From: an uncultured delta proteobacterium
GTDB taxonomy: Bacteria; Desulfobacterota; Binatia; JACPRU01
Assembly (NCBI GenBank): GCA_963745025.1
Contig: CAVUWD010000016.1
Coordinates: forward strand, 128,001-192,000
Length of the DNA: 64,000 nt
Reading direction: 5' to 3'
Shown here piece after piece: positions 8,082 through 59,572 of this stretch. The position numbers and the translations under genes are program-made. The stretch's first letter is position 1. Each line of letters opens with the position of its first letter. Under the pieces are notes generated by a model. That model worked only from the letters and a program-made list of their open reading frames with translations, did not search any database and had not been told where the DNA came from.

Positions 8082-8244
8082 ATTCCCCCTCGGCGCGTGT
8101 CCACGCTCTTACGCCCGAACGTCAGCACCGCTTGGCGGTCTGGCGGCTCCTCTTCTGTCTCTACCTTGCGTGCCACGACCTTGCCGCGGGTGTTTTGCCT
8201 GGCCTGGGCTTTGTGGGCTATATCGAACCGGCGCGTCCAAAGCC

Positions 8245-8547: not shown

Positions 8548-9179
8548 GTCTTCCAGTACATTCTTCGTCGCACGGCCACTCGCTGGCGGCTGATCTTCGC
8601 CCGTCCGTCGCCTTAAAGCCACCAACGCGGACCTTCGGCCGCAACCAAGGCGGCGGCGCCCGGGAGTGCCTGCATGACGCACCGCGAAAGTTCTTTGCAA
8701 GCCGCAAAGAATCTATACCATGAGGCGTACCACGAAGATGCTCGTATTTCAGGGCTCTCGTTGTCGCGAGAGAAGTTCGACCGCGTCATCGCGGCTGGTG
8801 AACGTGCCGCTACTTGTGCACTGGAGCGCGTCCCGGCGAGTTTGAAGGCTGCCACCACGCTGCGCGCCCGGATTTCGCGGCCAATTGGCAGCTCCGGGTC
8901 CAGGTGATACTCCTATTTCCAGAGTGAGGTGACCATGGGAACAAGAGTTCGTCTGTGGGGATCGATCGCGATGCTCTCGCTCGTCGCGCCGGTGACCGCC
9001 AGATCGCAGGCGCTCGCCCGCCCCAAGGGGGTACCGCAAAACGACCGTTGGGTGAGCTCATGCTCGCCCCGCTCTTTGCTGGGAGCGAATTTGGATTGCA
9101 TGCCGCTCAAGGTATGGCGATCCTCGTCATGGTTGCGGCACTGTGGGCCGCCGGTGGGCGAGCGGCATCGGAGCGGGAC

Positions 9180-9797
9180 ATGACACTTAAATTGCTCTTC
9201 TGGGGATTATTGGCGCTCGCAATTCCGGCGGAAATTTTCGCGGCGCCCTCGTACGACGGAAACTCCGGCGCGTTAAAAAACGCAGTTATTCTCATCATCC
9301 GGCACGCCGAAGAACCGGATGATGGCTATGGGTTGTCCCCAGTGGGCGACGCTCGCGCTCAGGCTTACGTTAATTATTTCAAGAATTTCACGGTTGACGG
9401 ACAGCCGTTGAAACTGGACTACCTGTTCGCCGCCAAGGATTCCCCCAACAGTCATCGCCCGCGCCTCACCATCGAACCGCTCGCCAAGGCACTCGGTCTC
9501 ACGGTTGACACCCGGTTCGATAACAAACAATTTCTGAAATTGGTCGATGAAATTCAGAGCCGGCCACACGGTACCAACATCTTGATCTGCTGGCATCACG
9601 GGACAATTCCCCAGCTACTGAGCGCGCTGGGTGCTGATCCCAAAAAACTCCTTCCCGACGGCAAATGGCCGGACGATGTGTTCGGCTGGCTGATTCAGTT
9701 GCGCTACGACGAGAACGGTCGTTTGTTTGAAAGTAAACGCATCAACGAAAATTTGTCATCTGATGATTCGGCCAAACATGTCCGGGCTGCGGCTTGA
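9180..9797 (+). CDS. Secreted histidine-phosphatase-superfamily protein
   Basis: Signal peptide, IIRHAE, LSPVG..RA, RPRLTIEPLA, ILICWHH; visibly more AT-rich than its flanks. Confidence 0.78.
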   Translation: MTLKLLFWGLLALAIPAEIFAAPSYDGNSGALKNAVILIIRHAEEPDDGYGLSPVGDARAQAYVNYFKNFTVDGQPLKLDYLFAAKDSPNSHRPRLTIEPLAKALGLTVDTRFDNKQFLKLVDEIQSRPHGTNILICWHHGTIPQLLSALGADPKKLLPDGKWPDDVFGWLIQLRYDENGRLFESKRINENLSSDDSAKHVRAAA

Positions 9798-9938
9798 TAA
9801 ACGCTTGTTGGCCGGCGATGGAGAAATAGACGCATTCTCAATTTTTCAGACACTCTGACTCCGGAACACGCAATTTCCTCTAGATGCGGAGAGGTGATAG
9901 GGCGAATCCCAACCAGTTCGGAAAAGACGGAGGAGATC

Positions 9939-10778
9939 ATGTCATCGCATCTGTCTCGCACGGGCCGCCATGGCGGAAGAGCGTTTGGCATCATCATCAC
10001 TTTCGCCATCACCGCGCTCGCGTACGTGTTGCCGCCGGCAGCGTTCGGCGCCAACCCCGTAGAAGAAATGGCCAAGCAAAAATTCTCCATTGGCGGCGGT
10101 ATAGACCCGCAGGGCGATTCGTGGCTCGCCATGCAGAACAGCTTCGAGCAGTTCCTGCATCCGGAGTTCGTTCTGCGACTCCTTCTTAGTTTAACGTTGG
10201 CGGTGGGTTGTGCGTGGGTGTTCGCGTGGCATCCGCGCCACTCGTCGCGCCTCGATTCGCTTTCCGACCTCGAGGAGCGCAACACGCTCGTCCTCCTTGG
10301 CATGGTCGGGGCGATCGTCGCGGAATTGAGCGGGACCAGCCAAACGCTCGCGTTTGTCATCTTCGGGATCGGAGCACTGCTGCGTTTCCGCACCGTGCTC
10401 GACAATCCGAAGCTCACCGGAAAAGCCATCACGGTCGTGGTGATCGGGCTCGCGTGCGGCATGGGGTCATGGGTGATGGCGATCTTCGTCACCGCTTTCA
10501 GCTGGATCCTCATCTTTTGGCTGGATTCACACATCGCCTGCCGGGTCCGGATCCGGCTCGCCGAGGACGTGGATCCGGAGGCGGTTTTTGGCAGGGTGCA
10601 ATCGTTGCTAGGCTCGCGCGGTTGTCGGCTGCAAAGTTCCGCGCTCTACAAAGACAAACGACGGTTGGTGTTCCTTCTGCACATTCCAGCGGGACTCGAC
10701 CTAGAACAATTGAAGTTGGATGTACGCGCGAATCTGCCGGAGGCCGATGACGCCCGGATTAATATTGATTTGGAGTGA
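9939..10778 (+). CDS. DUF4956/MgtC-like membrane protein
   Basis: GGAG RBS; LAFVIFGIGALLRFRT, IGLACGMG, C-terminal soluble domain. Confidence 0.7.
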   Translation: MSSHLSRTGRHGGRAFGIIITFAITALAYVLPPAAFGANPVEEMAKQKFSIGGGIDPQGDSWLAMQNSFEQFLHPEFVLRLLLSLTLAVGCAWVFAWHPRHSSRLDSLSDLEERNTLVLLGMVGAIVAELSGTSQTLAFVIFGIGALLRFRTVLDNPKLTGKAITVVVIGLACGMGSWVMAIFVTAFSWILIFWLDSHIACRVRIRLAEDVDPEAVFGRVQSLLGSRGCRLQSSALYKDKRRLVFLLHIPAGLDLEQLKLDVRANLPEADDARINIDLE

Positions 10779-10978
10779 ACGCGCGGACACGCGAGCGGCA
10801 GTGTGCTGGCTATCGCGCGGCCATCGCCGCGCGAGCTAGGAGACGATTGCTCGAATGCTGCAGTCCCGCCCTTCAGCACGTCGCGCAGGACTGGGTCGCG
10901 CTGGGCACGTCCAAGGCCGCCGCGGTATCGCTTGAAGGGCAACGCGCAGACGGCGCAGAGTGAGGTCTGACTGTCTTC

Positions 10979-11521
10979 ATGGACATCACGGCGCGCGATC
11001 TGCAATACGTCACCTCTCTGGAGGAAATCTGGTGGGGCGGAACGCTTGTTGCGCTCACCCTGGCCATGCACGGCTTCGGCATGATCTGGACGATGCACGC
11101 GACCAACGCGCTGAAACACCGGTTCGCGCGCAACCAGTCCTTCGCCCTCGGCATGGGCGTCATCATTCTCGCGAGCTGGATGATCATCCTCGTCCATCTC
11201 CTCGAGGTGGTACTGTGGGCCGGATTTTTCCTTTGGCGGGGTGCGATGCCCAACGGCAGCCTTTCCTACTACTTCGCATTGATGGACTACACAACGCTGG
11301 GCAGCAACTTCAACCTGCCGTTGCGCTGGCGCCTGCTCGAGGGCATGATCGCCATCGCCGGGCTGATGACGTTCGCCTGGTCCACCGGCGTGTTGCTGAC
11401 GCTGGCGCAGGAGTTCCAGGATCAGCAGCTGAAACGCCTCAAAGAGCGGCTGGGAAGACATTCGTCTAAATCGGGCTCGCCGCCGCCGCACCGGCCGGGG
11501 GACACGGAACACAGCGTCTGA
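10979..11521 (+). CDS. Ion-channel-like (Ion_trans_2) membrane protein
   Basis: YYFALMDYTTLG pore-helix-like motif, WRLLEGMIAIAGLMTFAWSTG; no GYG filter. Confidence 0.72.
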   Translation: MDITARDLQYVTSLEEIWWGGTLVALTLAMHGFGMIWTMHATNALKHRFARNQSFALGMGVIILASWMIILVHLLEVVLWAGFFLWRGAMPNGSLSYYFALMDYTTLGSNFNLPLRWRLLEGMIAIAGLMTFAWSTGVLLTLAQEFQDQQLKRLKERLGRHSSKSGSPPPHRPGDTEHSV

Positions 11522-11845
11522 TATCGAGGCGTTAAGTAGCTTTCGGACCCTCGTAGGTGGTGGAGAACTAGCGGGGCGAGCTTCTCCTCGGGGTTGGGCC
11601 GATGGACCTCAACACCCGGCAAGCCGCTTGGGCAGCTCGGCGACTCTCGTGTCGCGCGAAGACGACGTCGTCGGAGCTATCGCTCTCGCGGTCGATCGTG
11701 GCACGCATCGAGTCGATCGATTCGGGCTCGACGATCGCCCGTAAGACCGCCGCGGGCTAGGGGATCCGCTTCTCGACGGTCCTCGCCACCGGTGTTCCCG
11801 TAGCGGAGGACCAATCGGCTCGGTTACCCCGGCGTTCCGCCGGGG

Positions 11846-16072: not shown

Positions 16073-16186
16073 GTGTAGGGGACGTTCTTAACCTTCGTAA
16101 CCTTCGCCGCGTTTCTCGCTTTCGTGAAATCCCGTTCGGAAGAGAGGCGCGACGAAGGTTACGAAGGTTAAGAACGTCCCCTACAC
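16073..16186. repeat. REPIN/MITE-like long inverted repeat
   Basis: 34-bp perfect arms GTGTAGGGGACGTTCTTAACCTTCGTAACCTTCG and its reverse complement, extending imperfectly to ~45 bp. Confidence 0.85.
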
Positions 16187-30795: not shown

Positions 30796-30879
30796 CGGCT
30801 ACCGGCTACCGCCTTCCGACTACCGCAAAAGACCCCAAGAAGGCTTTGCCGGTAGTCGGTAGCCGGAAGCCGGAAGCCG
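30796..30879. repeat. Heptamer-armed palindrome, copy 1
   Basis: (CGGCTAC)-like units, a spacer, then (GTAGCCG/GAAGCCG)-like units. Confidence 0.8.
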
Positions 30880-35247: not shown

Positions 35248-35328
35248 GACGGCTATCGGCCACCGGCTTCCGGCTACCGATAACGACACCGGGGATTCTG
35301 TTGCGGTAGCCGGTAGTCGGTAGCCGTC
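35248..35328. repeat. Heptamer-armed palindrome, copy 2
   Basis: GACGGCTATCGGCCACCGGCTTCCGGCTACCG...CGGTAGCCGGTAGTCGGTAGCCGTC between convergent genes. Confidence 0.8.
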
Positions 35329-40573: not shown

Positions 40574-40600
40574 AGAGCGGATTCGGGCGACAGGTAAAGG

Positions 40601-40666
40601 GACGGCTACCGGCTACCGCAAGAGACTTCGCGAAGTCTTTGCCGGAAGCCGGAAGCAGAAAGCCGT
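40601..40666. repeat. Heptamer-armed palindrome, copy 3
   Basis: GACGGCTACCGGCTACCGCAAGAGACTTCGCGAAGTCTTTGCCGGAAGCCGGAAGC... Confidence 0.75.
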
Positions 40667-45795: not shown

Positions 45796-46035
45796 CTCAG
45801 TCTCGGGTGCGAGCGCTCGAAATTCCTGATGCGCTGGATCTTCCGGTCGGCCCGTGCTCGGGTCGACCGGAAGATCCAGGCACCGCGCGGAAGCGCGGAA
45901 GGCAATAGACCAACTCGCGGGTTATTACCTCCCGCGCTCCGCGCGGTTGCGGTCGGTTGTGATCGACCCGAATACGGGCCGATCACAACCGACCGCGCTC
46001 TTCGTTGTCCCGAAGCACTCGCGGCGAAGACTGAG
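45796..46035. repeat. Multi-hairpin intergenic element, copy A
   Basis: Three hairpins (45834-45879, 45882-45947, 45949-45996) inside an imperfect closing stem; homologous to 59320-59572. Confidence 0.88.
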
Positions 46036-46097
46036 CTCTCACCGAGCGTCACCATCGCGTTGACTGGCTGCGGACCCTCGGTTAAGACAACGGCCCA

Positions 46098-47582
46098 ATG
46101 CCCGATTCCGCCAGTGATCTGCTGGTCGCGCGCCGGCGGAAGCTCGAGGCGCTGCGTGCACGCGGCGGTGTTGCCTTTCCGAACGATTTCGTCCCCGATC
46201 GGACGACCGGCGAGGCACGCACGCGCTTCGGCGATGTGAGCGCCGAGCGTCTGGCGGATGCGAAAGAGACGGTGCGCCTCGCGGGACGCATCGTCGGCAT
46301 GCGCGACTTCGGCAAGGCGGCATTCTTTCACTTGCAAGATCGCAGTGGCCGGCTGCAGGTCTACGTCAAGCGCGAAGAGCTCGGCGAGGAAGGATTCGCG
46401 GTCTACCGGCACTGCGACGTCGGCGACGTCGTCGGTGTGGAAGGCGAGCTCTTTCGCACGCGAACCGGGGAGCTGACCCTGCTCGCGCGCCGCTTCCGAA
46501 TCCTCACCAAGTCGCTTCGGCCGCTTCCCGAGAAGTGGCACGGTCTCGCCGACACCGAGATCCGCTATCGGCAGCGCTACCTCGACCTGATCGCCAACCC
46601 GCAAGCCGCCGAGGTCTTCCGCAAGCGTGCCGCGATCATGCAGAAGATTCGCGACTACTTCGCCGCACGCGATTTCATCGAGGTCGAGACGCCGATGATG
46701 CAGCTCACCGCCGGGGGCGCCGCGGCCCGGCCCTTCGTCACCCACCACAATGCGCTGGATCTCGATCTCTACCTGCGCATCGCACCCGAGCTGTATCTGA
46801 AGCGTCTCGTGGTCGGCGGATTCGAGCGCGTCTTCGAGCTCTCCAGGGTGTTTCGCAACGAAGGCGTGTCGACGCAGCACAATCCCGAGTTCACGCTCCT
46901 CGAGTTCTACATGGCGTATGCGGATTACCACAGGCTCATGGAGATCACCGAAGAGCTCTTCTGCGAGCTCGCGCGGGAAGCGGCCGGCGGTCTCCGACTG
47001 CCGTGGGGAAAGCACGAGATCGATCTCACGCCCCCCTGGAAGCGGCTCACGCTGCGCCAGGCGGTGCGCAGCCACGCCGGAGCTCGTGACGCGGACCTCG
47101 CCTCGGAAGCGTCGCTACGGGCGTTTGCCGCGGGTCGGGGCCTGGCGCTCGACAAGAGCTGGGGCGCGGGCAGGATTCTTCTCGAGCTCTTCGAGGCCTT
47201 CGCCGAAGACAAGCTCGTCTCGCCGACCTTCGTGTTGGGATATCCGGTGGAGGTCTCACCTCTTGCGCGGCGCAATCCGGACGACCCCGAGATCACGGAC
47301 CGCTTCGAGCTCTACATCGCCGGACGGGAGATGGCGAACGCGTTTTCCGAGCTGAACGATCCCGACGACCAGCGCCGCCGTTTCGAAGCCCAGGCACGCG
47401 CCAAGGCCGCTGGCGACGAGGAGGCGCAGGAGATGGATGAGGACTTCGTGCTCGCGCTCGAGCACGCCATGCCGCCGACCGCGGGAGAAGGCGTGGGGGT
47501 CGATCGATTGGTGATGATGCTCACCAATCAGTCGTCGATCCGCGACGTGATCCTCTTTCCGCTGCTTCGCCCGCCTGCCTGA
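46098..47582 (+). CDS. lysS: Lysine--tRNA ligase
   Basis: LPEKWHGL, RQRYLDL, YLRIAPELYLKRL, FRNEG, HNPEF. Confidence 0.97.
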   Translation: MPDSASDLLVARRRKLEALRARGGVAFPNDFVPDRTTGEARTRFGDVSAERLADAKETVRLAGRIVGMRDFGKAAFFHLQDRSGRLQVYVKREELGEEGFAVYRHCDVGDVVGVEGELFRTRTGELTLLARRFRILTKSLRPLPEKWHGLADTEIRYRQRYLDLIANPQAAEVFRKRAAIMQKIRDYFAARDFIEVETPMMQLTAGGAAARPFVTHHNALDLDLYLRIAPELYLKRLVVGGFERVFELSRVFRNEGVSTQHNPEFTLLEFYMAYADYHRLMEITEELFCELAREAAGGLRLPWGKHEIDLTPPWKRLTLRQAVRSHAGARDADLASEASLRAFAAGRGLALDKSWGAGRILLELFEAFAEDKLVSPTFVLGYPVEVSPLARRNPDDPEITDRFELYIAGREMANAFSELNDPDDQRRRFEAQARAKAAGDEEAQEMDEDFVLALEHAMPPTAGEGVGVDRLVMMLTNQSSIRDVILFPLLRPPA

Positions 47583-47592
47583 GCCGCTTTCC

Positions 47593-48855
47593 GTGCGGTA
47601 CGAGCTGTTCATCAGCCTGCGCTACCTCCGCGCGAAGCGCCGAGAGGCGTTCATCAGCCTGATCACGCTGATCTCGATCCTCGGCGTGACGATCAGCGTG
47701 ACGACGCTCGACATCGCGCTGTCGGTGACCACCGGCTTCGAAAACGATTTGCGAAACCGGATCCTCGGCTTCACGCCGCACGTGATCGTCACCAGCTACG
47801 GCGGGCCGATCGCGGATCCGGCAAAGGTGATGGGCCCGATCCTGCGCACGCCCGGCGTGGTGGCGGCTGCTCCGTACGTGTACGTGCAGGCCATGGTCTC
47901 CTACGGCAGCGCCGTCACCGGCGTTTTCATCCGCGGCGTCGAGCCCGAGCGGGCGCACGCGGTGGTCGACGTGAAGCGCTTCCTGCGCAGCGGCAGCTTC
48001 GACGAGATGGGCAAGCCGCACGACGTGACGATCCACGAACAAGGGGAGGAGAGGCGGGTGGCGCTGTCCGGCGTGGTCATCGGCGTCGAGCTCGCCAAGC
48101 AGCTCGGCGTCAGCGAGGGCAGCGCGGTCACGGTCATTCTGCCCGTGGGTACGCCCTCCTCGCTCGGGATGGTTCCGCGCATCAAGCGCTTCGCGGTCGT
48201 CGGCCTCTTCGACTCGGGGATGGCCGAGTTCGATTCGAGCCTCATGTATATGGCGCTTGCCGACGCGCAGGGCTTGGTCGGCCTGAAGGACGCCGTCACG
48301 GGAGTGGAAGTCCGCACGGAGCGAATCGACCAAGCCGCGGAAGTCGCCGCGCGGATCGCAAAGAGCGGACTCGGATTTCCCTACGAAGCGCGGGATTGGA
48401 TGCAGATGAACCGCAACGTGTTCATCGCGCTGCGGTTGGAGAAGCTCGTCTATTTTCTCGTGCTCTCGCTCATGCTCGTGGTTGCGGGCTTCTCCATTCT
48501 CGCGACGTTGATCATGGTCGTGATGGAGAAGCGAAAAGACATCGCGATTTTGAAGTCGATGGGGGCCACGGACGGCTCGGTGGCGCGAATCTTCGTCTTC
48601 AAGGGGTTGGTGATCGGGCTCATCGGTACGGTTCTCGGTAACATCGGCGGTCTCGGCCTCTCCTGGTTGATCTCCCGATACAAGCTCCCGCTGCCGCACG
48701 GGGTGTTCTTCACCGAGACCGTGCCCGTCGAGATCGTTCCCGCCTACTTCGTGGCGGTGACCGTCGCGGCGTTCGTGGTCTGCTTGTTCGTCACGGCCTA
48801 TCCGGCGTCACGTGCGGCGCGCGTCGCCCCCGTGGACGTCATTCGCTATGAATGA
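47593..48855 (+). CDS. Lipoprotein-releasing ABC permease LolC/E
   Basis: [37 protein letters not shown]...RYE. Confidence 0.93.
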
Positions 48856-49576
48856 GGAGCTTGCTTCGGCGGCGGTCGGCGAGCCGCTCGTGTACGTCGA
48901 TGGGCTCGTCAAGCACTTCAGCGACGTCGGGCGGGTCGTGCGCGTGCTCGAGGGGGTGCATCTCGAGGTACAGCCAGCCGAGAAGATCGCCATCGTCGGC
49001 GAGTCGGGCGTGGGTAAATCGACGTTGCTGCACATCCTCGGGGCGCTCGACCGGCCGACCGCCGGGGTCGTGCGCTATGGCGGCGCCGACCTTCAGTCGC
49101 TCACGCCACGGGCGCTCGCCGCCTTCCGCAACCGCGACATCGGTTTCGTCTTCCAGTTCCACCACTTGATGGCGGATCTCACCGCCGAGGAGAACGTCAT
49201 GATGCCGGCGCTGATCGCCGGTCTGAGCTGGGATCGCGCTCGCCAAGAGGCGCGCGCCATCCTCGAGCGCGTGGGCCTCGCCGATCGGCTCGCGCACAAG
49301 CCTGGTGAGCTTTCCGGGGGCGAGCAGCAGCGGGTGTCGGTCGCGCGGGCGGTCGTGCGGTCCCCTCGGGCGCTCCTCGCCGACGAGCCCACGGGGAACC
49401 TCGATCCTGCCACGGGCGAGGAGGTCCAGCGCCTGCTGATCGAGCTCAACCGTGAGCGCGGCGTGGCGCTCGTCGTCGTCACCCACAATCCACGGCTCGC
49501 CGCGGCGATGGATCGCGTACTCCGTCTGCACGGCGGCCGCCTCGAGGCGGTTCGCGATCTCGGAGCACGGGTTTGA
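48848..49576 (+). CDS. lolD: Lipoprotein-releasing ABC ATPase
   Basis: [29 protein letters not shown]. Confidence 0.92.
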
Positions 49577-49662
49577 AGACCAGACGCCCGCCGCACGTCG
49601 AAGGGCCGTGCTGTACACCCCGCAAACCATCTGATACCACGGCGCAATTTCGTGAATTCCAC

Positions 49663-51993
49663 ATGACCGTCTGCAGGTTCCTGCTCTTCTGGGTGCTGGC
49701 GCTCGCGTCGTCAGGGGCTGCCGGGGAAGCGCCAATCGAGGCCATTTCGGTCACCGGCAACAGCCGCGTCGAGCAATCGGCGATCCGCGTCCGCATCAAG
49801 AGCCCGATCGGCAAGCCGCCCGACCCCGCCCTCATCGAGCAGGACGTACGCTCGATCTACGCCATGGGTTTTTTCGAGGACGTACGAGCGTCGGTCGAGG
49901 ACGGCGACGGCAGACGCACGCTCACGTTCCACGTGGTCGAGCGGCCGATGATCAAAGAGATCAAGCTCGAGGGCAACAAGAAGATCAAAGACGACGATCT
50001 GCAGATCGCGCTGAAGGTTCGGCCGCACACGTTGCTCGACGTCGAGAAGATCCAGCGAGGCATGGAGGAAGCCAAGAAGCTCTACGACCAGAAGGGCTAC
50101 AAGGACGCCGCGATCACCTTCAAGACCTCCGAGCCGGTGGGGGGAGAGGTCACGCTTACCTTCCATGTCGTCGAGGGTAAGGTCGTCCGCATCCGGCACA
50201 TCATCTTCGAGGGCAACAAGGAGTTCTCGGCGCGTGAACTGCGCCGCATCATGCAGACGAAGCAGGCGTGGTTCCTCTCCGTGCTGACCGGTGCCGGCAA
50301 CCTCGATCCCGAGGTGCTGAAGACCGACGTCGAGCGGTTGACCGCCTTCTACTACGACAGCGGACACGTGAACGTGAAAGTCGACGAGCCGCAGGTCGAG
50401 CGCAAGGAAGACGGGCTCGATGTGACGATCCGCATCGAAGAGGGCGCTCAGTACGTGGTCGGGCCGGTGAAGTTCGCCGGGGACATCGTGGGTGACCCGG
50501 ACGTCACCATGGCGCACCTCGAGATGAAGAGCGGAGATGTGTTCCGCGCGAGCCGGCTCCGCAAGGATATCCTCTTTCTCACCGAATCCTACGGCGATCT
50601 CGGCTTCGCCTTCGTCAACGTCGAGCCGCTCACCGAAGTGGATCCCGACAAGAAGCAGGTCGGGCTCACCTACAAGATCGACAAGGGCCCCGTGGTCTAT
50701 TTCGATCGCATCGAGATCACCGGCAACACCAAGACCAAGGACGAGGTGATCCGTCGCGAGCTGAACGTTCAGGAGCAGCAGCTCTTCCGCGGCAGCGATC
50801 TGAAGACGAGCCGGGCCCGCGTGCAGCGCCTGGCTCTCTTCCAGGAAGTGAACATGACGACCCAGCGCGCGGATCAGCCGGACAAGATCGATCTGCTGGT
50901 CGACGTCAAGGAGTCGCAAACCGGTGCGTTCACCGCCGGTGCGGGGTTCAGCACGGCCGACCAATTCCTGTTCAACGTGCGGCTCTCCGAGAACAACCTG
51001 TTCGGAACCGGCGACCGGGTGGTGCTCAACGCGGACGTCGGCTCGCAGCGGCGGAACTTCACCCTCGACTACACCAACCCCTACAGCTTCGACACCTACT
51101 TCACCTCGATCTTCTCGGCGTTCAACTACCTTACCGAATTCGACGACTTCGACCGTGGCGGCACCGGCTTCTCGATCGAGGCACTCTATCCATTCACCGC
51201 GCTCGGCGTGCGCCGGGTGCCGTTCGTCGGCGCCTCGCTCGACGAGGTGCGCTTCGGCATGCGCTACAGACTCGACGATACGGACATCAGCAACGTCTCG
51301 AGCTTTTTCCGCGTGCCGAGCATCGACGCCGAGGAAGGCAAAATGCTGGTGAGCAGCGTGATTCCCACGCTCGTGCGCAACACCCTGAACCATCCCTTCG
51401 ATCCGACCGACGGCTCGATCCAGGACATGTCGGTGCAATTCGCCGGCATCGGCGCGGGGGCGGGTTACTTAATCGTCGAGGGGCGAGGGCGCTGGTTCTA
51501 TCCCTTCTACAAGAGCCCGACGTTCGGCACTTTCGTGCTCTCGCATGGGACTCGCGTCGGTTGGGGCGTCGGCCAGGAAGACCGTAGCGGAAAGGAAATT
51601 CCGCTGTTCGAGCGGTTCTTCCCCGGTGGCATCAACTCGGTGCGCGGCTACGAAGCTCGCACGCTCGGCCCCCGCGAGCCGGTGTTCGACCCAGAGAACA
51701 ACATCGTCGACACCACTCCGGTCGGAGGCAGCACGCAGCTGATCTTCAACAACGAGCTGATCTTTCCGATCTTCGAGCAACTCGGGCTGCGCGGCGTGCT
51801 CTTCTTCGACCTCGGTAACGCCTGGCGGCACGACCAGGGAATCCCCTTGAGCGATTTGCGCAAATCCGTGGGATGGGGCGTCCGCTGGCTGTCGCCGATC
51901 GGTCCGCTGCGCATCGAACTCGGATATCCGCTGCAGAAGAAGGCGAACGAGAAGAGCAGCGTCTTTCAGTTCTCGTTCGGCGCCCCCCTATAG
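49663..51993 (+). CDS. bamA: Outer membrane assembly factor BamA
   Basis: POTRA repeats, SVRGY, WLSPIGPL, C-terminal FQFSFG. Confidence 0.96.
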   Translation: MTVCRFLLFWVLALASSGAAGEAPIEAISVTGNSRVEQSAIRVRIKSPIGKPPDPALIEQDVRSIYAMGFFEDVRASVEDGDGRRTLTFHVVERPMIKEIKLEGNKKIKDDDLQIALKVRPHTLLDVEKIQRGMEEAKKLYDQKGYKDAAITFKTSEPVGGEVTLTFHVVEGKVVRIRHIIFEGNKEFSARELRRIMQTKQAWFLSVLTGAGNLDPEVLKTDVERLTAFYYDSGHVNVKVDEPQVERKEDGLDVTIRIEEGAQYVVGPVKFAGDIVGDPDVTMAHLEMKSGDVFRASRLRKDILFLTESYGDLGFAFVNVEPLTEVDPDKKQVGLTYKIDKGPVVYFDRIEITGNTKTKDEVIRRELNVQEQQLFRGSDLKTSRARVQRLALFQEVNMTTQRADQPDKIDLLVDVKESQTGAFTAGAGFSTADQFLFNVRLSENNLFGTGDRVVLNADVGSQRRNFTLDYTNPYSFDTYFTSIFSAFNYLTEFDDFDRGGTGFSIEALYPFTALGVRRVPFVGASLDEVRFGMRYRLDDTDISNVSSFFRVPSIDAEEGKMLVSSVIPTLVRNTLNHPFDPTDGSIQDMSVQFAGIGAGAGYLIVEGRGRWFYPFYKSPTFGTFVLSHGTRVGWGVGQEDRSGKEIPLFERFFPGGINSVRGYEARTLGPREPVFDPENNIVDTTPVGGSTQLIFNNELIFPIFEQLGLRGVLFFDLGNAWRHDQGIPLSDLRKSVGWGVRWLSPIGPLRIELGYPLQKKANEKSSVFQFSFGAPL

Positions 51994-52021
51994 ATCCCGA
52001 ATGTTTCTCGAGGAGGTTTGA

Positions 52022-52558
52022 ATGAAGCGATGGATTCTACCGTTTGCGATTCTGCTGCTCGCGGCGCCCCTGGTCCGGGCCGAGGAGCTGAAGCTCGCCA
52101 CCGTCGACATGCAGCGAGCGCTGAACGAGTGCGACGCCGGAAAGAAAGCGAAGGAGGACTTCAAGAGCCAGGTCGACAAGCTGCAGGCCGACCTGAACAA
52201 GCAGAAGACGGACATCGAGAAGATCAAGGAAGACGTCGAGAAGAAGGGGATGGTGCTGAAAGAGGACGAGCGCAAGAACATCGAGCGCGACTACCAGAGG
52301 CGCCTGCGCGACTTCCAGCGGACCTACAAGGACTCGCAGGCCGAGCTGCAGCAACGCGACAACGAGCTCACCTCCGAGATCCTACGCCAGCTCCAAGAGG
52401 TGATCGCCGAATACGGCGCCAAGCAGGGCTACACGCTGGTCCTGGAGGCCTCCAACACCGGGGCGGTGCTCTACAACTCGCGCTCGGTCGACATCACGGA
52501 TCTGGTGATTCAGGAGTACAATTCCAGGCGCAAGGGCGCGACGGCCAAGACGAAGTGA
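52022..52558 (+). CDS. skp: OmpH/Skp chaperone
   Basis: Signal peptide, KLATVDMQRAL, coiled coil, DITD. Confidence 0.92.
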   Translation: MKRWILPFAILLLAAPLVRAEELKLATVDMQRALNECDAGKKAKEDFKSQVDKLQADLNKQKTDIEKIKEDVEKKGMVLKEDERKNIERDYQRRLRDFQRTYKDSQAELQQRDNELTSEILRQLQEVIAEYGAKQGYTLVLEASNTGAVLYNSRSVDITDLVIQEYNSRRKGATAKTK

Positions 52559-52571
52559 AGCAACGCTGACG

Positions 52572-53024
52572 GTGCGACTCGACTATCCAGACATCATCCG
52601 ACGATTGCCGCACCGCTATCCCTTCCTGCTCGTCGATCGCGTGATCGAGCTTACGGACGGACGGCGCCTGGTGGCGATCAAGAACGTGACCGCCAACGAG
52701 CCCTTCTTCGGTGGGCACTTTCCCGGGCGTCCGATCATGCCCGGGGTATTGATTTGCGAGGCGCTGGCGCAGGCGGGGGGGCTGCTCGCCAGCTGCTCGA
52801 GCGACGGCCTGCCCGCGGGGAGGGGGATCGTGCTCGCCGGCCTCGAGCACGTGCGCTTCCGCCGGCGGGTGGTCCCTGGAGATCAGCTACGGCTGGAGGT
52901 CGAGCTCGTGCACAAGCGCCGTCCGCTCTGGAAGATGAAGGGACGGGCACTCGTCGACGGAAACGTAGCCACCGAAGCCGAATTCCTCACCATGGAAGTC
53001 GACAGCTCCGAGATGGGATTCTGA
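52572..53024 (+). CDS. fabZ: 3-hydroxyacyl-ACP dehydratase
   Basis: LPHRYPFLLVD, HFPGRPIMPGVLICEALAQ. Confidence 0.96.
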   Translation: MRLDYPDIIRRLPHRYPFLLVDRVIELTDGRRLVAIKNVTANEPFFGGHFPGRPIMPGVLICEALAQAGGLLASCSSDGLPAGRGIVLAGLEHVRFRRRVVPGDQLRLEVELVHKRRPLWKMKGRALVDGNVATEAEFLTMEVDSSEMGF

Positions 53025-53026
53025 GC

Positions 53027-53842
53027 GTGTCGATTCATCCCAAAGCGATCATCGCGCCGGGGGCGGATCTCGCCGGGGATGTCGAGATCGGTCCCTACGC
53101 GGTGATCGGCCCCGAGGTGCGGATCGGCCGCGGCACGAAGGTGGGCGCTCACGCGGTGATCGAAGGCCGCACGACCATCGGCGAGCGTAACCGCGTCTTC
53201 CAGTTCGCCGCGCTCGGCGCGATTCCTCAGGATCTGAAGTATCACGGCGAGCTGACGACGCTCGTCATCGGCAACGAGAACCAGATCCGCGAGTTCACGA
53301 CCCTGCACATCGGCACCGAGGGGGGTGGGGGCGTGACCTCGGTCGGGGACCGCAACCTGTTCATGAACTTCTCGCACGTTGCGCATGATTGTCACATCGG
53401 CAACCGCGTGATCTTCGCCAACGGCGCCACGCTCGCGGGACACGTGGTCGTCGAGGATCACGTGATCGTCGGCGGCCTCGCGGCCGTTCATCAGTTCGTG
53501 CGGCTCGGCGAATCGTCGATGCTCGGCGGCGGCGCGATGGTCGCGCAGGACGTGCCGCCGTTCTGCGTCGTGCAGGGCGACCGGGCCGGTCTCGTGGGAC
53601 TCAACGTCGAGGGGTTGCGCCGCCGCGGCTTCTCCGATGACGAGGTGCGCGCGCTGCGCGTCGCCTACCGTACGCTCTTCCGCTCGGGCCTGACCGTGCG
53701 CGACGCGATCCGGAAGATGCGCGAGGAGCACGCCCTGGGGGTGGCCGCCGAACGGTTGCTGCAGTTCGTCGAGAGCTCGAAGCGGGGAATCTGCCGACTC
53801 CGCGGCGAGGCCGGGGATGACGCGGACCCCGAGTCGTTGTGA
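53027..53842 (+). CDS. lpxA: UDP-GlcNAc acyltransferase
   Basis: Hexapeptide repeats, PQDLKY, HVAHDC, LAGHV, VHQF. Confidence 0.96.
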   Translation: MSIHPKAIIAPGADLAGDVEIGPYAVIGPEVRIGRGTKVGAHAVIEGRTTIGERNRVFQFAALGAIPQDLKYHGELTTLVIGNENQIREFTTLHIGTEGGGGVTSVGDRNLFMNFSHVAHDCHIGNRVIFANGATLAGHVVVEDHVIVGGLAAVHQFVRLGESSMLGGGAMVAQDVPPFCVVQGDRAGLVGLNVEGLRRRGFSDDEVRALRVAYRTLFRSGLTVRDAIRKMREEHALGVAAERLLQFVESSKRGICRLRGEAGDDADPESL

Positions 53843-53844
53843 AA

Positions 53845-53920
53845 GGCTACGGGCTTCGGGCTACGGCCTACAGGAAAGGCTCAGGGAGTCTTTGCCCGTA
53901 GCCCGAAGTCTGTAGCCGTC
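53845..53920. repeat. Heptamer-armed palindrome, copy 4
   Basis: GGCTACGGGCTTCGGGCTACGG...CCCGTAGCCCGAAGTCTGTAGCC. Confidence 0.75.
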
Positions 53921-53922
53921 GT

Positions 53923-54756
53923 ATGAACGAACCCATCGGCCTCATCGCCGGCAACGGACGCTTTCCGTTGATTTTCGCCGAGACGGCGAAGCGGGAAGGC
54001 GTGCGCGTGATCGCCGTCGCGCACCGCGGCGAGACCGACCCGGCGCTCGACGGCATGGCCGAAGCGGTCACCTGGGTGCGGGTCGGGGAGCTCGGCAAGA
54101 TGATTCGCGCGCTGCGCGACGCCGGCGTGCGCCGGGCGGTGATGGCGGGCGGGCTCTCCAAGGCCGGTGTGTTTCGCGGCGGCCGCCCGGATCTTCGTGG
54201 CGCCATGTTCCTCGCACGGATACGAAGCTTTCGTGACGACACCCTGCTGCGCGGCATCGCCGGCGAGTTCGAGAGCGACGGCATCGAGATCGTTCCTTCG
54301 ACGACGTTCCTGTCGACGATCGTCACTCACGAGGGTGTGCTCGGGCGGCACGGGCCGAAGCAGCGCGAGTGGGCCGACGTGGCCTACGGCTTTCGCGTCG
54401 CCAAGGAAGTCGGCCGCTTCGACGTCGGGCAGAGCGTCGTGGTACGCGGGGGCGTGGCGCTGGCGATCGAGGGCATGGAGGGTACCGACGCGTGCATTCG
54501 CCGCGGCGGGGAGCTCGGACACGGCGGTGTCGTCGTGATCAAGGTCTCGAAGCCCGGGCAAGACCTGCGCTTCGACGTCCCGGCCGTCGGACCGCGCACG
54601 ATCGAGGCGATGACCGAGGTGAAGGCGCGCGTTCTGGCTCTCGAGGCCGAACGCACGATCCTGCTCGACCGCGCGGAGCTGCTCGCCAGCGCCGATCGCG
54701 CAGGGATCGCCGTCCTCGGCGTGAGCGAGGCGAGCCTGCGGGAGCGTGCGTCGTGA
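53923..54756 (+). CDS. lpxI: UDP-2,3-diacylglucosamine diphosphatase LpxI
   Basis: GLIAGNG, DVGQSVV, IEGMEGTD, QDLRFDVPAVG. Confidence 0.93.
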   Translation: MNEPIGLIAGNGRFPLIFAETAKREGVRVIAVAHRGETDPALDGMAEAVTWVRVGELGKMIRALRDAGVRRAVMAGGLSKAGVFRGGRPDLRGAMFLARIRSFRDDTLLRGIAGEFESDGIEIVPSTTFLSTIVTHEGVLGRHGPKQREWADVAYGFRVAKEVGRFDVGQSVVVRGGVALAIEGMEGTDACIRRGGELGHGGVVVIKVSKPGQDLRFDVPAVGPRTIEAMTEVKARVLALEAERTILLDRAELLASADRAGIAVLGVSEASLRERAS

Positions 54757-55700
54757 GAACGCGCGTTGCCGTCGTCGGGGTCGGCTACCTCGGTCGGTTC
54801 CACGCCGAAAAATACGCGGCCGAGCCGGGGGTCGAGCTCGTCGGCGTGGTCGACAGCGACACCGAGCGTGCCCGCGAGGTGGCGGCTCGCTTCGGCTGTC
54901 GAGCCTTCTCCGACGCCCGCGAGCTCTACGGCCTGGTCGATTGCGCGAGCGTCGTGGTGCCGACGCCGCTCCACCGCGACGTCGGGACGGGGCTCCTCGA
55001 GGCCGGCATCGACGTGCTCGTCGAGAAGCCGATCGCCGCCACGCTCGAGGAGGCGCGGGCGCTCGTGCGCGTCGCCGAGGAGCGGGGTCGGATCCTCCAG
55101 GTCGGACATCTCGAGCGCTTCAACCCGGCGATGCGCGCGGTCGCCGAGGTGCTGACGCGCCCGCGGTTTCTCGAGTGCCATCGCCTCGCGCCGTTCGTCG
55201 AGCGCGGCACCGACGTGGACGTGGTGCTCGATCTCATGATCCACGATCTCGACGTGATCCTCAGCATGATGACGAGCCCCGTGGCGGCGGTCGAGGCGGT
55301 GGGGGTTCCGGTGATCACGAGCTCGCCCGACATCGCCAACGCGCGGATCCGCTTCGCCGACGGCGCGATCGCCAACGTCACGGCGAGTCGCGTGTCGTTC
55401 AAGCGCGAGCGCAAGCTGCGCATCTTTCAGCACGACACCTACATCTCCCTCGACTACGGCGAGAAGCGCCTGCGCATCTGCCGTCGCGGCCAGGCGCCGC
55501 CCGGCGGACTCGCTCCGATCGAGGTCGAGGAACGCATCGTCGAGGGGGAGGACGCGCTCGCCGAAGAGATCCGCGCCTTTCTCGCCGCCGTGCGCACGCG
55601 CCAGGCGCCGCTGGTGAGCGGTCGCGAGGGGTTGCGAGCGGTCGAGCTCGCCTATCAGGTTCGCGAGCGCGTCGAGGACGAGATACGGCGCTCGCGATGA
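54753..55700 (+). CDS. Gfo/Idh/MocA oxidoreductase (GnnA-like)
   Basis: GVGYLGRFH, VEKP, QVGHLERFNP, DLMIHD; located between lpxI and lpxB. Confidence 0.85.
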   Translation: MRTRVAVVGVGYLGRFHAEKYAAEPGVELVGVVDSDTERAREVAARFGCRAFSDARELYGLVDCASVVVPTPLHRDVGTGLLEAGIDVLVEKPIAATLEEARALVRVAEERGRILQVGHLERFNPAMRAVAEVLTRPRFLECHRLAPFVERGTDVDVVLDLMIHDLDVILSMMTSPVAAVEAVGVPVITSSPDIANARIRFADGAIANVTASRVSFKRERKLRIFQHDTYISLDYGEKRLRICRRGQAPPGGLAPIEVEERIVEGEDALAEEIRAFLAAVRTRQAPLVSGREGLRAVELAYQVRERVEDEIRRSR

Positions 55701-56878
55701 GCGTCGAAAGGCGTCTGCTCGCCGCGGAGGAGGCCGGCACTCCCTCGTCGCGCGTGATGCTCGTTGCGGGCGAGGCTTCGGGTGATCTGCACGCGGCCGG
55801 GCTCGTCGCGGCGATGCGGCGGCGGGCGCCGGGAATCCAGATCTGGGGAATCGCCGGAGGCGAGGCGCGCTCCCAGGGGATGGTCACCGCGGTCGACATC
55901 GCCGAGATCGCCACCTTCGGCCTCACCGAGGTCGCCGAGAAGGGGCGCGCACTCTGGCGCAGTTACCGGATGCTCCGCCGTGAGATCTACGAGCGTCCGC
56001 CACGGCTTCTGGTGCTGATCGATTTTCCGGAGTTCAATCTCGCGCTCGCGGCGGTCGCCAAGCGGCGCGGGGTGCCGGTCTTCTACTACGTGAGCCCGCA
56101 GGTCTGGGCGTGGAGGCGCGGGCGCGTTCGCAAGATTCTTCGCCGGGTCGACCGGCTCGCGGTCCTCTTTCCCTTCGAGCCCGCGGCGTATGGAAACGCC
56201 CCGAAGGTCGTCTTCGTCGGTCACCCGCTACTCGATCGGGTGCGGGCGACGGCGAGCCGAGAGGAGACGCTCGCGCGGCACGGCCTGGATGCCGCGAAGC
56301 GGTTGGTCGTGCTTCTGCCGGGCAGCCGGCGGCGGGAGATCGAGCGCCTCCTGCCCGAAATGGCGGGCGCCGCCGAGCGGCTCGCCAGGCGTCGCCCGCT
56401 CGAGTTCGCGGTCGTTCTCGCGCCGACGCTGCCGCGCACGCTCGCGGAGTCGCTGACCGCCGGCTGCGGCGTGCCGCTTCCCCTGGTCGAGAGCGATGCC
56501 TATAACCTGATCGCCGCTGCGGATCTGGTGTTGACGGCCTCGGGCACGGCGACGCTCGAGGTCGCGCTCCTCGAGCGGCCGATGGTGATCATGTATCGAG
56601 CCTCGCCACTGACCTTTGCCGTTGCCCGCGCCCTCGTCGACGTCCCGTGGATCGGCATGCCGAATCTGATCGCCGGCCGAGCCATCGTGCCCGAGCTGAT
56701 TCAAGGTCGGGCGCGCGCCGCGGAGATCGCGCGCGAGGCGGAGGCCATCCTCTCGGACCCGGCACGCACGCGAGTGATGCAGGCGGATCTCGCTGCCGTT
56801 CGTGCGTCGCTCGGCTCGGGAGGCGCCGCCGAGCGTGCCGCGGGGCTCGCCTTGGCTCTGATGGGAGCGGGGACGTGA
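55697..56878 (+). CDS. lpxB: Lipid A disaccharide synthase
   Basis: AGEASGD, IDFPEFN, YVSPQVWAWR, LPGSR, SGTATLE. Confidence 0.96.
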   Translation: MSVERRLLAAEEAGTPSSRVMLVAGEASGDLHAAGLVAAMRRRAPGIQIWGIAGGEARSQGMVTAVDIAEIATFGLTEVAEKGRALWRSYRMLRREIYERPPRLLVLIDFPEFNLALAAVAKRRGVPVFYYVSPQVWAWRRGRVRKILRRVDRLAVLFPFEPAAYGNAPKVVFVGHPLLDRVRATASREETLARHGLDAAKRLVVLLPGSRRREIERLLPEMAGAAERLARRRPLEFAVVLAPTLPRTLAESLTAGCGVPLPLVESDAYNLIAAADLVLTASGTATLEVALLERPMVIMYRASPLTFAVARALVDVPWIGMPNLIAGRAIVPELIQGRARAAEIAREAEAILSDPARTRVMQADLAAVRASLGSGGAAERAAGLALALMGAGT

Positions 56879-58623
56879 AACTCTACCGCCGCCTGCTCGG
56901 CTACCTGCGGCCATACGTCTGGCCCCGCTTCACGCTGGCCGTGATCTGCATGGTGTTCTACAGCTCCACGAACGGCGTGATGCCGTATCTCGTGCGCAGC
57001 GTCTTCGACGACGTCTTCTTGCAGAAGAAGGAGTGGGCGCTGCGCGTGCTGCCGGTTGCGATCGTCACCGTCTTTCTGTTTCGCGCCGTGATGAGCTTCA
57101 ACCAGAGCTATCTGATGGAGTGGATCGGGCAGCACGTGATCGCCGACATCCGCAGTCAGCTGAACGCGCACTTCCAGCGCCTGTCGCTCTCGTTCTACAA
57201 CCGCACGCCGACCGGTACGCTGCTCTCGCGCATGACCAACGACGTCGAGCTCATGCGCAGCGCGCTCACGGATGCGGTCGCGTCGGTGATGAAAGACCTG
57301 ACGTCGCTCCTGGTGCTGCTCGCGGTCGCGTTTTTCATGGATTGGACGCTCGCGCTGATCGCCTTCGTCGCGTTCCCGCTCACGGTGCTGCCGATCTTGC
57401 GATTGTCACGGCGCTTGCGGAGGGTCACCCGCAAGGGTCAGGTGACGCTCGGCAACCTGGCGACGCTGCTCCAGGAGACGATTCAGGGGAACCGCGTCGT
57501 CAAGGCCTTCGGCATGGAGGACTACGAAATCCGCCGCTTCGATGCGGAGAGCGAGCGGCTCGTCGGGCTGTACATGAGGGCGGCACGCATCAAGGCCTTC
57601 ACCACGCCGATGATGGAAGTGCTCGCCTCGTTCGGCATCGCCGGAGTCGTCTGGTACGGCGGCTCGAGCGTGATGGCCGGTGGGCGCACGCCCGGCTCGT
57701 TCATGGCCTTTCTCACGGCGATGCTGCTGCTCTACGATCCGTTCAAGGGTCTGACCAAGACCAACAACGTCGTGCAGCAGGGACTGGCGGGGGCGAGCCG
57801 CATCTTCGAGATGCTCGACCAAGCGAGCGACGTGGTGGAACGGCCCACGGCGACCGCTCTGCAGGGCTTTCGCGAGGGCATCCGCCTCGAAGACGTGACC
57901 TTCCGTTACGAGGCGGAGCCGGTGCTCCGCGAGGTGAACCTGGAGATTCGCCGTGGCGAGGCCGTCGCGCTGGTCGGCCGCAGCGGCTCGGGCAAGAGCA
58001 CGCTGGCGGATCTGATTCCACGCTTCTACGACGTCACAGGAGGTCGGATCACGGTCGACGGACGGGATGTGCGCGACCTGACGCTGGCATCGCTTCGTGC
58101 CGAGATCGCGATCGTCACGCAGTTCACCTTTCTCTTCAACGACACCGTGCGAACCAACATCGCCTACGGCGACGTCGGCACCTCGCTGGAGCGGATCGAA
58201 GCCGCGGCGCGCGCCGCCAACGCGCACGACTTCATTTGCGAGCTGCCGCAGGGCTACGACACGGTGATCGGTGAGCTAGGCGTCAAGCTTTCCGGAGGGC
58301 AGCGCCAGCGCGTGGCGATCGCACGCGCTCTCCTCAAGAACGTGCCGATCCTGATCCTCGACGAGGCGACCTCGGCTCTCGATAACGAGTCCGAGCGGCT
58401 GGTCCAAGAGGCGATCGAACGGCTGATGGCGGGTCGCACGACGCTGGTCATCGCCCACCGCCTCTCGACCATCCGCAACGCCGACCGGATCGCGGTTCTC
58501 GACCGCGGGCGCATCATCGAGGAAGGGACGCATGCGGAGCTCCTCGATCGCGGCGGCGAGTATCGCCGGCTCTACGACATGCAGTTCCGCGACGAGCCCC
58601 GCGCCGCGGTGGCCGGGGAATGA
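56875..58623 (+). CDS. msbA: Lipid A flippase MsbA
   Basis: ABC transmembrane domain + NBD, GRSGSGKST, LSGGQRQR, DEATSALD; lpx context. Confidence 0.93.
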   Translation: MKLYRRLLGYLRPYVWPRFTLAVICMVFYSSTNGVMPYLVRSVFDDVFLQKKEWALRVLPVAIVTVFLFRAVMSFNQSYLMEWIGQHVIADIRSQLNAHFQRLSLSFYNRTPTGTLLSRMTNDVELMRSALTDAVASVMKDLTSLLVLLAVAFFMDWTLALIAFVAFPLTVLPILRLSRRLRRVTRKGQVTLGNLATLLQETIQGNRVVKAFGMEDYEIRRFDAESERLVGLYMRAARIKAFTTPMMEVLASFGIAGVVWYGGSSVMAGGRTPGSFMAFLTAMLLLYDPFKGLTKTNNVVQQGLAGASRIFEMLDQASDVVERPTATALQGFREGIRLEDVTFRYEAEPVLREVNLEIRRGEAVALVGRSGSGKSTLADLIPRFYDVTGGRITVDGRDVRDLTLASLRAEIAIVTQFTFLFNDTVRTNIAYGDVGTSLERIEAAARAANAHDFICELPQGYDTVIGELGVKLSGGQRQRVAIARALLKNVPILILDEATSALDNESERLVQEAIERLMAGRTTLVIAHRLSTIRNADRIAVLDRGRIIEEGTHAELLDRGGEYRRLYDMQFRDEPRAAVAGE

Positions 58624-59294
58624 AGGGAAGCCGCCGTGCGCGGATTCGGGTTGCGTTTCTTGGGTTCGCCGCCCGCTGCCTCTACGGGCTGGTCAAGAAC
58701 ACCGTGCGCCCGGTGGTGGGTCCGGACGCTCGCGAGGTGCTCGCGGCCTTCGAGAAGAACGAGCGCGTCGTGATCGCGTTCTGGCACGGTCAACTGGCGA
58801 TGCTGCAGGCGGCGTACCGCGGTCGCGGTGCCGGGATTTGCGTTCAAGTGAGCCATCACAGCGACGGTGAGATCATCACCCGTGCCGTCCGTCCGTTCGG
58901 CATCCGCGCGGCGCGCGGCTCGGCCACGCGCGGCGGACTGGCGAGCGTGCGCGAGATGCTCGAAGCGCATCGCCAGGGCTACGACCTGGCTCTCGCGCCC
59001 GATGGCCCGCGCGGTCCGATTCACCGTGCCAAGCCAGGAGCGATCCGGCTCGCGCAAGCGACGGGGGCGCGTCTTTTTCCCGTGGCGTGCGCTCCACGAC
59101 GGGCATTGGTGTTCCGAAGCTGGGACCGCTTCATTGTGCCGCTGCCGTTCACGCGGGTTTATTACGTCGTCGGGACGCCGCTGTCGGTTCCGCACGGCGT
59201 CGATGCGGAAGCGATCGAACGCGCGAGACGGACTCTTGAAGAGGAGCTCTGCCGCGCCACCTTGGAAGCCGAGCGGCGCGCCGGGCGGCGGTGA
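58620..59294 (+). CDS. DUF374 acyltransferase (LpxJ-like)
   Basis: FWHG, SHHSDGE, RGSATRGG, PDGPRGP, SWDRF..P.PF. Confidence 0.88.
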   Translation: MKGSRRARIRVAFLGFAARCLYGLVKNTVRPVVGPDAREVLAAFEKNERVVIAFWHGQLAMLQAAYRGRGAGICVQVSHHSDGEIITRAVRPFGIRAARGSATRGGLASVREMLEAHRQGYDLALAPDGPRGPIHRAKPGAIRLAQATGARLFPVACAPRRALVFRSWDRFIVPLPFTRVYYVVGTPLSVPHGVDAEAIERARRTLEEELCRATLEAERRAGRR

Positions 59295-59319
59295 TGAGGA
59301 CCGAGGCATCGTCACGTTC

Positions 59320-59572
59320 GCATCCCCTCACTCTTTGCCTCGAGCGCTCGAGATTCCGAAAGCGCTGGATTCTCCGGTCGGCCCGTACACGGGTCGACCG
59401 GAAAATCCAGCCACCGCGCGGAGCGCGGAACGCAATAACCCGCGAGTTGGTCTATTGCCTTCCGCGCTCTGCGCGGTTGCGGTCGGTTGTGATCGACCCG
59501 AGTACGGACCGATCACAACCGACCGCGCTCTCCGCCGTTTCGATTCATTCGAGGCGAAAACTGAGGGGATGC
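59320..59572. repeat. Multi-hairpin intergenic element, copy B
   Basis: Same architecture as 45796-46035, closed by GCATCCCCTCA/TGAGGGGATGC; middle hairpin reversed. Confidence 0.88.

Follow-up and report, generated by a model that had tools for sequence, protein, structure and literature searches.

A dispersed three-hairpin palindromic repeat of two delta proteobacterial genomes in which the centre of the middle hairpin occurs in both orientations

We describe a palindromic element of about 240 nucleotides that occurs twice, as copies A and B, in a 64,000-nucleotide stretch of contig CAVUWD010000016.1 of an uncultured delta proteobacterium (positions 128,001 to 192,000; hereafter the window), and four more times in a second genome. 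The element consists of three long hairpins, H1, H2 and H3, within a closing stem; H1 and H3 are a single kind of motif-bearing hairpin arranged as an inverted doublet, and the structured H2 is the spacer between them. The element has spread as a single unit to intergenic sites that are unrelated to one another, and the centre of H2 is found in either orientation. We favour the reading, at a probability of roughly 0.6 for the whole of it, that the element is an unnamed, non-coding, non-autonomous palindromic repeat akin to doublets of repetitive extragenic palindromes (REPs) or to miniature inverted-repeat transposable elements (MITEs), in other words REPIN/MITE-like, that it is narrowly distributed in two genomes of similar composition, and that its H2 centre inverts passively. 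The flip of H2 is real, is probably recurrent and is most likely the ordinary behaviour of a palindrome, not a genetic switch.

Copies A and B align directly at 84.6% identity over 227 columns (E 4e-66), at the coordinates that a first-pass annotation of the window had given them (Table 1). Folded as DNA, copy A reaches -99 kcal/mol (z = -12.2, with none of 200 shuffled sequences equally stable) and forms the closing stem and three long hairpins; the minus strand of copy B folded as RNA gives z = -15.9. The fold and the alignment of A with B bear out the order H1-H2-H3 that the annotation had reported, as well as its closing stem of differing sequence: the terminal arms of A and B are unlike, and pairing is retained in both. 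That three-hairpin description was correct as far as it went, but it overlooked a motif of 22 nucleotides at the apex of H1 and H3, which the two hairpins carry in opposite orientations on lower stems that are otherwise unrelated. The motif has four exact matches in the window, one in each H1 and H3 of A and B, and allowing up to three mismatches yields seven matches, all at the same four hairpins, where 0.05 would be expected. The motif includes one unpaired position, a G-T on one of the strands and an A-C on its complement; each DNA strand of the element therefore holds one hairpin of each form.

When the 22-nucleotide motif was sought as an exact match in 185,579 species genomes, seven loci were returned. 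Four of them (L002, L004, L005 and L007) are real copies, all in one metagenome-assembled genome (MAG) titled uncultured delta proteobacterium; in the other three (L001, L003 and L006) the 22-nucleotide pattern stands alone, without the rest of the element, and we set them aside as chance matches. L004 and L007 are complete; L002 and L005 have a left part that is degenerate and still possess H2, H3 and the right end. The scan demands an exact match, which diverged relatives and extra copies in the MAG would escape, and the window's own genome is absent from its matches. Conservation of the H3 motif in the MAG copies carries no independent weight, because the search pattern selected for it in all four. 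In H1 of L004 and L007 the motif is degenerate. In H1 of L007 (L007 9865-9919) the motif mismatch is gone and the loop has 11 nucleotides, not 4. Like a REPIN, the element appears as an inverted hairpin doublet that moves as a unit: A and B carry the motif in both hairpins, and a profile search of the window and the seven loci for lone H1, H2, H3 or end modules found none besides chance motif matches. The window and the MAG are alike in base composition. Tetranucleotide profiles of window thirds correlate with those of the MAG loci at 0.66-0.83 and with one another at 0.71-0.83; against three unrelated loci the values are 0.33-0.68.

As the first-pass annotation had noticed, 30 nucleotides of copy A (45897-45926) are the exact reverse complement of 59434-59463 in copy B. 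The annotation described hairpin 2 as flipped; what stands is the inversion of a centre of at least 15 nucleotides, while inversion of the entire hairpin is not demonstrated, as 28 intervals score equally for the A/B pair. H2 being a palindrome, inversion of just those 15 nucleotides suffices. When the state of H2 is read in the frame fixed by H3 and the right end, it is forward in A, L002, L005 and L007 and flipped in B and L004 (4 versus 2, n=6), and both states are present in each of the two genomes. Inverting the H2 centre gave alignment gains of 17, 13, 15, 10 and 6 in five opposite-state pairs and of 0, 4 and 6 in three same-state pairs, the test having covered 8 of the 15 copy pairs. 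Once set to one orientation, the 20-nucleotide cores of H2 are identical in A and B and 85% identical in L002 and L004, compared with 67% for cross-pairs. Because opposite-state pairs share loop sequence within each genome, we favour two flips in all, one in each genome lineage, a history that these sequences suggest and do not prove.

The arms of H2 indicate where the inversions may have ended. The H1-side arm reads GGAACGC in both flipped copies, B and L004, and the complement stands on the H3 side in no copy; the asymmetry of the arms thus stays with the frame of the element in flipped copies, which suggests breakpoints near the loop. In A and L007 the H1-side arm has been corrected to match the opposite arm. 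AGACC with a bulged base is conserved at one side of the loop in all six copies, and the loops themselves vary in sequence and in length (8-9 nucleotides or more). The term invertible module, which the first-pass annotation had used, is apt in that both states occur in both genomes; of a dedicated invertase there is no sign in the open reading frames (ORFs) scanned, and none of the loci was observed in more than one state.

The stems of the element are kept paired by double Watson-Crick changes. Across H1 and H3, 88.8% of alignment cells pair and 12 of 43 pairs have changed on both sides, a level reached in none of 500 shuffles and compared with one to four such pairs in slid controls, in a test that is inflated by the relatedness of the copies. 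Six of the pairs altered on both sides lie in H3, none of them reached via a G-U step on the plus strand, and several compensatory changes are clustered (H3 of L002, H1 of L004). Such compensation fits arm-to-arm copying, or alternatively pairing that is required on both DNA strands. The left hairpin of L005 (about 9860-9920) is a hybrid: its 3' half looks like H3 of the same copy in reverse complement. It appears to be a rearrangement between the two motif hairpins and may be a second sign of internal arm copying.

The dispersal of the element leads us to infer that it is mobile, and by analogy with REP and IS200/IS605 transposases it would be copied by a trans-supplied enzyme that reads folded single-stranded DNA, the usual candidate being a Y1 HUH transposase. 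Folded-DNA enzymes of the IS200/IS605 type read bulges and stem mismatches strand-specifically (PMC8266576; here and below, papers are cited for those portions of their text that were available), and the inverted doublet would present one active hairpin per strand. The flip of H2 would be a passive micro-inversion of its centre (15 nucleotides at least) between arms of ~28 bp, as in hairpins of plastid DNA and rRNA genes. Arms of this length may permit template switching during replication, or recombination that resolves either way, whether inside a single copy or between two copies in head-to-tail alignment. The same process could copy one arm onto the other, and the near-perfect stems would then be a product of the process that makes the flips. 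An inverted H2 centre would be tolerated since it is a spacer, with the orientation of the H1 and H3 motifs presumably held fixed by constraint. There are precedents: inversions of 25-27 bp between 18-bp inverted repeats recur within plant species in plastid spacers (PMC2903610), 69 loop inversions with compensatory clusters in hairpins of RNA genes have been ascribed to template switching (PMC8794818), and REP dimers with structured spacers have been described (PMC3733652).

Among known systems, the element is closest in build to the REP doublets, REPINs and BIMEs that are moved by REP-associated tyrosine transposases (RAYTs, or TnpA-REP). These are also intergenic, dispersed and G+C-rich, also consist of two related inverted hairpins about 100 nucleotides apart with a structured spacer, and also have a fixed mismatch that renders the two strands different (PMC3116915, PMC3733652, PMC6006769, PMC8266576). 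The element differs from them in its H1 and H3 stems of 21-23 bp, in lacking a canonical GTAG/CGTC tag, in that no RAYT was found in the ORFs scanned, and in that H1 and H3 share the apical 22 nucleotides alone, fold separately and stand within an extra closing stem. Its motifs are unmatched in the REP table of PMC6006769, as far as that table was available, and class 3 TnpAY1 hairpins and the other REP consensuses in the available part of supplementary table S1 of the same paper bear no resemblance to it. By analogy, then, the element would act like a REP doublet with a structured spacer; we nevertheless do not file it as a REP, because its stems exceed REP length two- to threefold and a canonical GTAG foot is missing. 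With the bacterial MITEs (Correia, ERIC, YPAL, Chunjie and Nezha; PMC3184786) and the terminal inverted repeat families associated with TIRYT (PMC3733652) it shares a non-coding length of 70-300 bp, terminal inverted arms, a very stable fold and a position adjoining coding sequences. Unlike them, it is G+C-rich and lacks both a terminal motif led by GGGG and a known cognate insertion sequence; its terminal arms are imperfect and have drifted between copies, the three copies scanned show no target duplication, and the interior holds three hairpins where theirs is a single rod. The micro-inversions of the plastid trnH-psbA spacer (PMC2903610) and of RNA genes, where template switching is held responsible (PMC8794818), resemble the flip of H2 in that a short asymmetric centre recurs both ways between long inverted arms, with multi-base compensatory changes in the stem; those inversions are alleles at one locus, whereas the states of H2 belong to paralogous dispersed copies in which one of three hairpins flips.

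Several observations weigh against the reading we favour. GTAG/CGTC-tagged REPs are palindromes of 20-40 bp with stems of 6-13 bp (PMC3733652), a range that the hairpins of the element, at 46-66 nucleotides with stems of 21-28 bp, exceed. Canonical GTAG is absent from every hairpin foot in the copies examined; GTGG stands 5' of H1 on the minus strand in two of four copies (B and L007) and GTTG 5' of H3 in five of six, which is suggestive at these inner feet, the same letters being also the end of the H2 stem. No Pfam family of transposases, integrases or recombinases was found among 200 ORFs of the window (67 likely genes and 133 further stop-to-stop frames over stretches without a Pfam match), in agreement with the first-pass annotation, and no mobile-element enzyme among 54 ORFs flanking the MAG copies. 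Neither set contains a RAYT (Y1 HUH) gene or a linked recombinase gene; an unlinked gene may exist. A scan of A, B and L007 found no target-site duplication: the longest flanking direct repeats measure 7, 5 and 6 nucleotides (p 0.09, 0.86 and 0.30), and none abuts both ends. The paired ends are imperfect in A, B, L004 and L007 (perfect over 8 bp in A and 11 in B), and the left end is degenerate in L002 and L005. There is no empty insertion site among the loci examined. The arms of H1 and H3 are equally long, yet flips number none in six for H3 and none in three informative cases for H1, an absence that passive inversion alone does not explain. A history of one flip with exchange between copies is rejected by the tree of H3 and the right end alone (approximately unbiased (AU) test, p 0.030). 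In each of the six copies, RNA of the minus strand folds more stably than that of the plus strand, by 7-13 kcal/mol.

The first-pass annotation had called the element unnamed and non-autonomous, and this is supported by six copies at six unrelated intergenic sites, by the lack of any Rfam family at the gathering threshold in the window and the four MAG loci, and by the lack of an enzyme nearby. By blastn, copy A has one chance match of 30 nucleotides each to plasmids and to phages, and neither L007 against plasmids nor copy B against E. coli genomes has any. A published description of the element was not found, nor any paper with two of four motifs of the element, in a literature search that left most subscription papers outside and in which consensus figures are unsearchable. 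Among 98 papers matched by a motif, the 15 that were listed contain the shortest one alone. Three candidate identities were rejected. The ends of H2 misfit the integron attC consensus RYYYAAC ... GTTRRRY, and the flanking genes are housekeeping genes, not cassettes; readings as a hammerhead ribozyme or a dif/Xer site failed on inspection of the alignment against consensus sequences. The arms of H2 may resemble repeats beside GxxExxY genes, a likeness for which we found no support in print.

The alternative that survives best, which we consider unlikely, is that the element is a multicopy structured RNA read from the minus strand (H3, then H2, then H1), as a stand-alone non-coding RNA or an element that spreads through RNA, with the H2 centre free to flip and shape alone mattering. 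The advantage of the minus strand when folded as RNA speaks for it, as do the strong covariation and a greater number of G-U pairs on that strand in five of six copies; since the copies are related, six of six do not amount to six independent observations. Among transition mismatches specific to single copies, across the three stems, seven read as G-U on the minus strand and two on the plus strand, a count that is partly alignment-dependent (two-sided binomial p about 0.18). Weighing the other way, the H1 and H3 motifs face opposite ways, so that a single transcript would carry two different forms; H3 has accepted no plus-strand G-U substitution, and the terminal stems wobble on both strands. 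Promoter and terminator scans called no promoter-like or terminator-like site at either copy in the window, and an Rfam scan of copy A by E-value gave 20 sub-threshold hairpin-shaped matches and nothing more.

Next in likelihood, and doubtful, is that H2 is the site where a dedicated enzyme, a site-specific recombinase or HUH nickase, cleaves and rejoins the DNA, with H1 and H3 as its binding hairpins. Such an enzyme would suit the presence of both H2 states in both genomes, the flipping of H2 alone despite equally long arms in H1 and H3, and the conserved AGACC with its bulged base, the more so as enzymes of folded single-stranded DNA recognise bulges and mismatches strand-specifically (PMC8266576). 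Breakpoints can moreover be placed in a short inverted repeat beside the loop for the pairs A/B and L007/B, but the best ones for L002/L004 lie farther out than the innermost of A/B, and crossover points cannot be fixed within a palindrome. The loop varies in length and sequence, the scanned ORFs include no gene for such an enzyme, and the non-reciprocal copying of arms in A, L007 and L005 suits conversion better than conservative recombination.

Ranked behind that is a bolder version in which the element would be a new small mobile element of single-stranded DNA: mismatch-marked H1 and H3 would load a nickase or recombinase, and H2 would be cut and rejoined, flip or flop, in each round. The terminal hairpins of parvoviruses such as adeno-associated virus are the flip/flop ends of linear single-stranded DNA viruses, made in each round by the Rep nickase. 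Like the element, they have a palindromic frame that stays fixed around an inner segment found in either of two reverse-complement states; the element differs from them in being chromosomal, in having no Rep and in showing no evidence of obligatory flipping. We hold this version to be quite unlikely; if it were true, the element would carry a parvovirus-like signature in a bacterial chromosome, and its cognate enzyme would be a new tool-grade recombinase of single-stranded DNA.

Less probable than any of these is a single ancient inversion, after which forward and flipped subfamilies both spread and later gene conversion made loops match within each genome. B and L004 do share the sequence of the H1-side arm, and a clade of these two has an AU p of 0.34 on all non-H2 columns, both for six copies and for the four complete ones (2, 2 and 3 informative sites for the three topologies). 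The same clade is borderline on the core (p 0.055) and rejected on H3 with the right end (p 0.030). Trees of six short copies have little power, and the four complete copies leave the history unresolved. The cores group by genome pair and not by state (A identical to B; L002 with L004, bootstrap 88), and converting a flipped loop from a forward copy would itself need head-to-tail recombination between arms. Lastly, palindromes can trouble assemblers, but an assembly artefact is barely credible here: both states recur, with different loop sequences, in a separately assembled genome, and H2 is just 65-66 bp long with imperfect arms at several positions of which A and B differ.

The settings of the copies bear on what the element might do. 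Copy A occupies 240 of the 339 nucleotides between the stop codon of an envC-like M23 peptidase gene (ending at 45758) and the ATG of lysS at 46098, and by Pfam its neighbours are ftsEX and the M23 peptidase gene, then lysS (a class II tRNA synthetase). Copy B is placed between a DUF374 gene (stop ending at 59294) and waaA (ATG at 59619), with msbA and DUF374 on one side and waaA (Kdo transferase) and lpxK on the other. The neighbours of the MAG copies are a histidine kinase gene and a CoA-ligase fusion gene; nagZ and a deoxynucleoside kinase gene, which are divergent; a lactonase gene and an OB-fold gene; and phosphorylase and aldehyde dehydrogenase genes. All six copies are thus intergenic, in six different gene neighbourhoods. 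Five lie between co-directional genes, four of them running with the genes and one (L007) against. The proposal in the first-pass annotation that the element inserts in envelope and translation gene clusters and tunes downstream expression is left unsupported, because the four MAG copies adjoin unrelated genes, either strand is used and one copy stands between divergent genes; an association with envelope or translation genes is thus peculiar to this window. We note a TTGACT hexamer in the interval 46060-46098, between copy A and the ATG of lysS, with a weak second hexamer 17 nucleotides on. It went uncalled in the promoter scan. Were it a promoter, the lysS leader would not include copy A, and lysS would have almost no leader. 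At L002, a 938-codon ORF (7122-9938, minus strand) that fuses an FAD-binding monooxygenase-like domain to an AMP-binding CoA-ligase domain starts inside the right-end flank of the element copy.

Table 1. Parts of copies A and B, in window coordinates
Feature	Position	Strand	Remarks
Copy A, whole element	45796..46035	+	gap between envC-like M23 peptidase gene and lysS
Copy A, left terminal arm	45796..45832	+	first 8 nt pair perfectly with last 8; interrupted pairing beyond
Copy A, H1	45834..45879		21-bp stem, 4-nt loop, one G-T pair on + strand
Copy A, 22-nt apical motif of H1	45846..45867	-	
Copy A, H2	45882..45947		~28-bp imperfect stem, one bulged base near 8-nt loop 45912-45919; forward state
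Copy A, smallest segment necessarily inverted	45908..45922	+	15 nt, within 30-nt exact match
Copy A, H3	45949..45996		22-bp stem, 4-nt loop, one A-C mismatch on + strand
Copy A, 22-nt apical motif of H3	45962..45983	+	orientation opposite to H1 motif
Copy A, right terminal arm	45997..46035	+	
Copy B, whole element	59320..59572	+	11-bp perfect outer stem
Copy B, H1	59364..59411		22-nt motif 59377-59398 on minus strand
Copy B, H2	59413..59477		flipped state; loop 59441-59448
Copy B, smallest inverted segment	59438..59452	-	within 30-nt exact match 59434-59463
Copy B, H3	59479..59526		22-nt motif 59492-59513 on + strand
Copy B, right terminal arm	59527..59572	+	

The window holds other features that we record in passing. 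A second dispersed intergenic family, made of hairpins of inverted tandem 7-mer repeats (GGCTACC/GGCTTCC type), lies at 30796-30879, 35257-35326, 40593-40665 and 53845-53917; heptamer intergenic repeats have been described in Beggiatoaceae (PMC4679880). A third palindromic element forms rods of about 100-115 nucleotides at window 16073-16186 and L007 4489-4590, with unrelated interiors and with arms that begin with GGGGACGTT in both genomes, a sequence that comes close to GGGGWSAS, the motif of TIRYT-associated repeats, without matching it. At 7109-11845, about 4.7 kb with several long ORFs has one weak Pfam match to a GST C-terminal domain and otherwise almost none. At 52022-53024, fabZ directly follows skp. 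The gene lpxD, often located between these two, is not there, and a second hexapeptide gene was not seen in the window.

If the reading we favour is right, the element brings one further, unnamed family of repeats, unusual in its build of three hairpins, and it would preserve in a bacterial repeat the traces of micro-inversion in hairpins and of homogenisation of their arms, which is of modest interest for the biology of REPs and MITEs. It would carry greater weight if the fixed motif of H1 and H3 led to its enzyme, which by the motifs checked is not the partner of a listed REP transposase, or if the flipping of H2 proved to be part of the transposition reaction.

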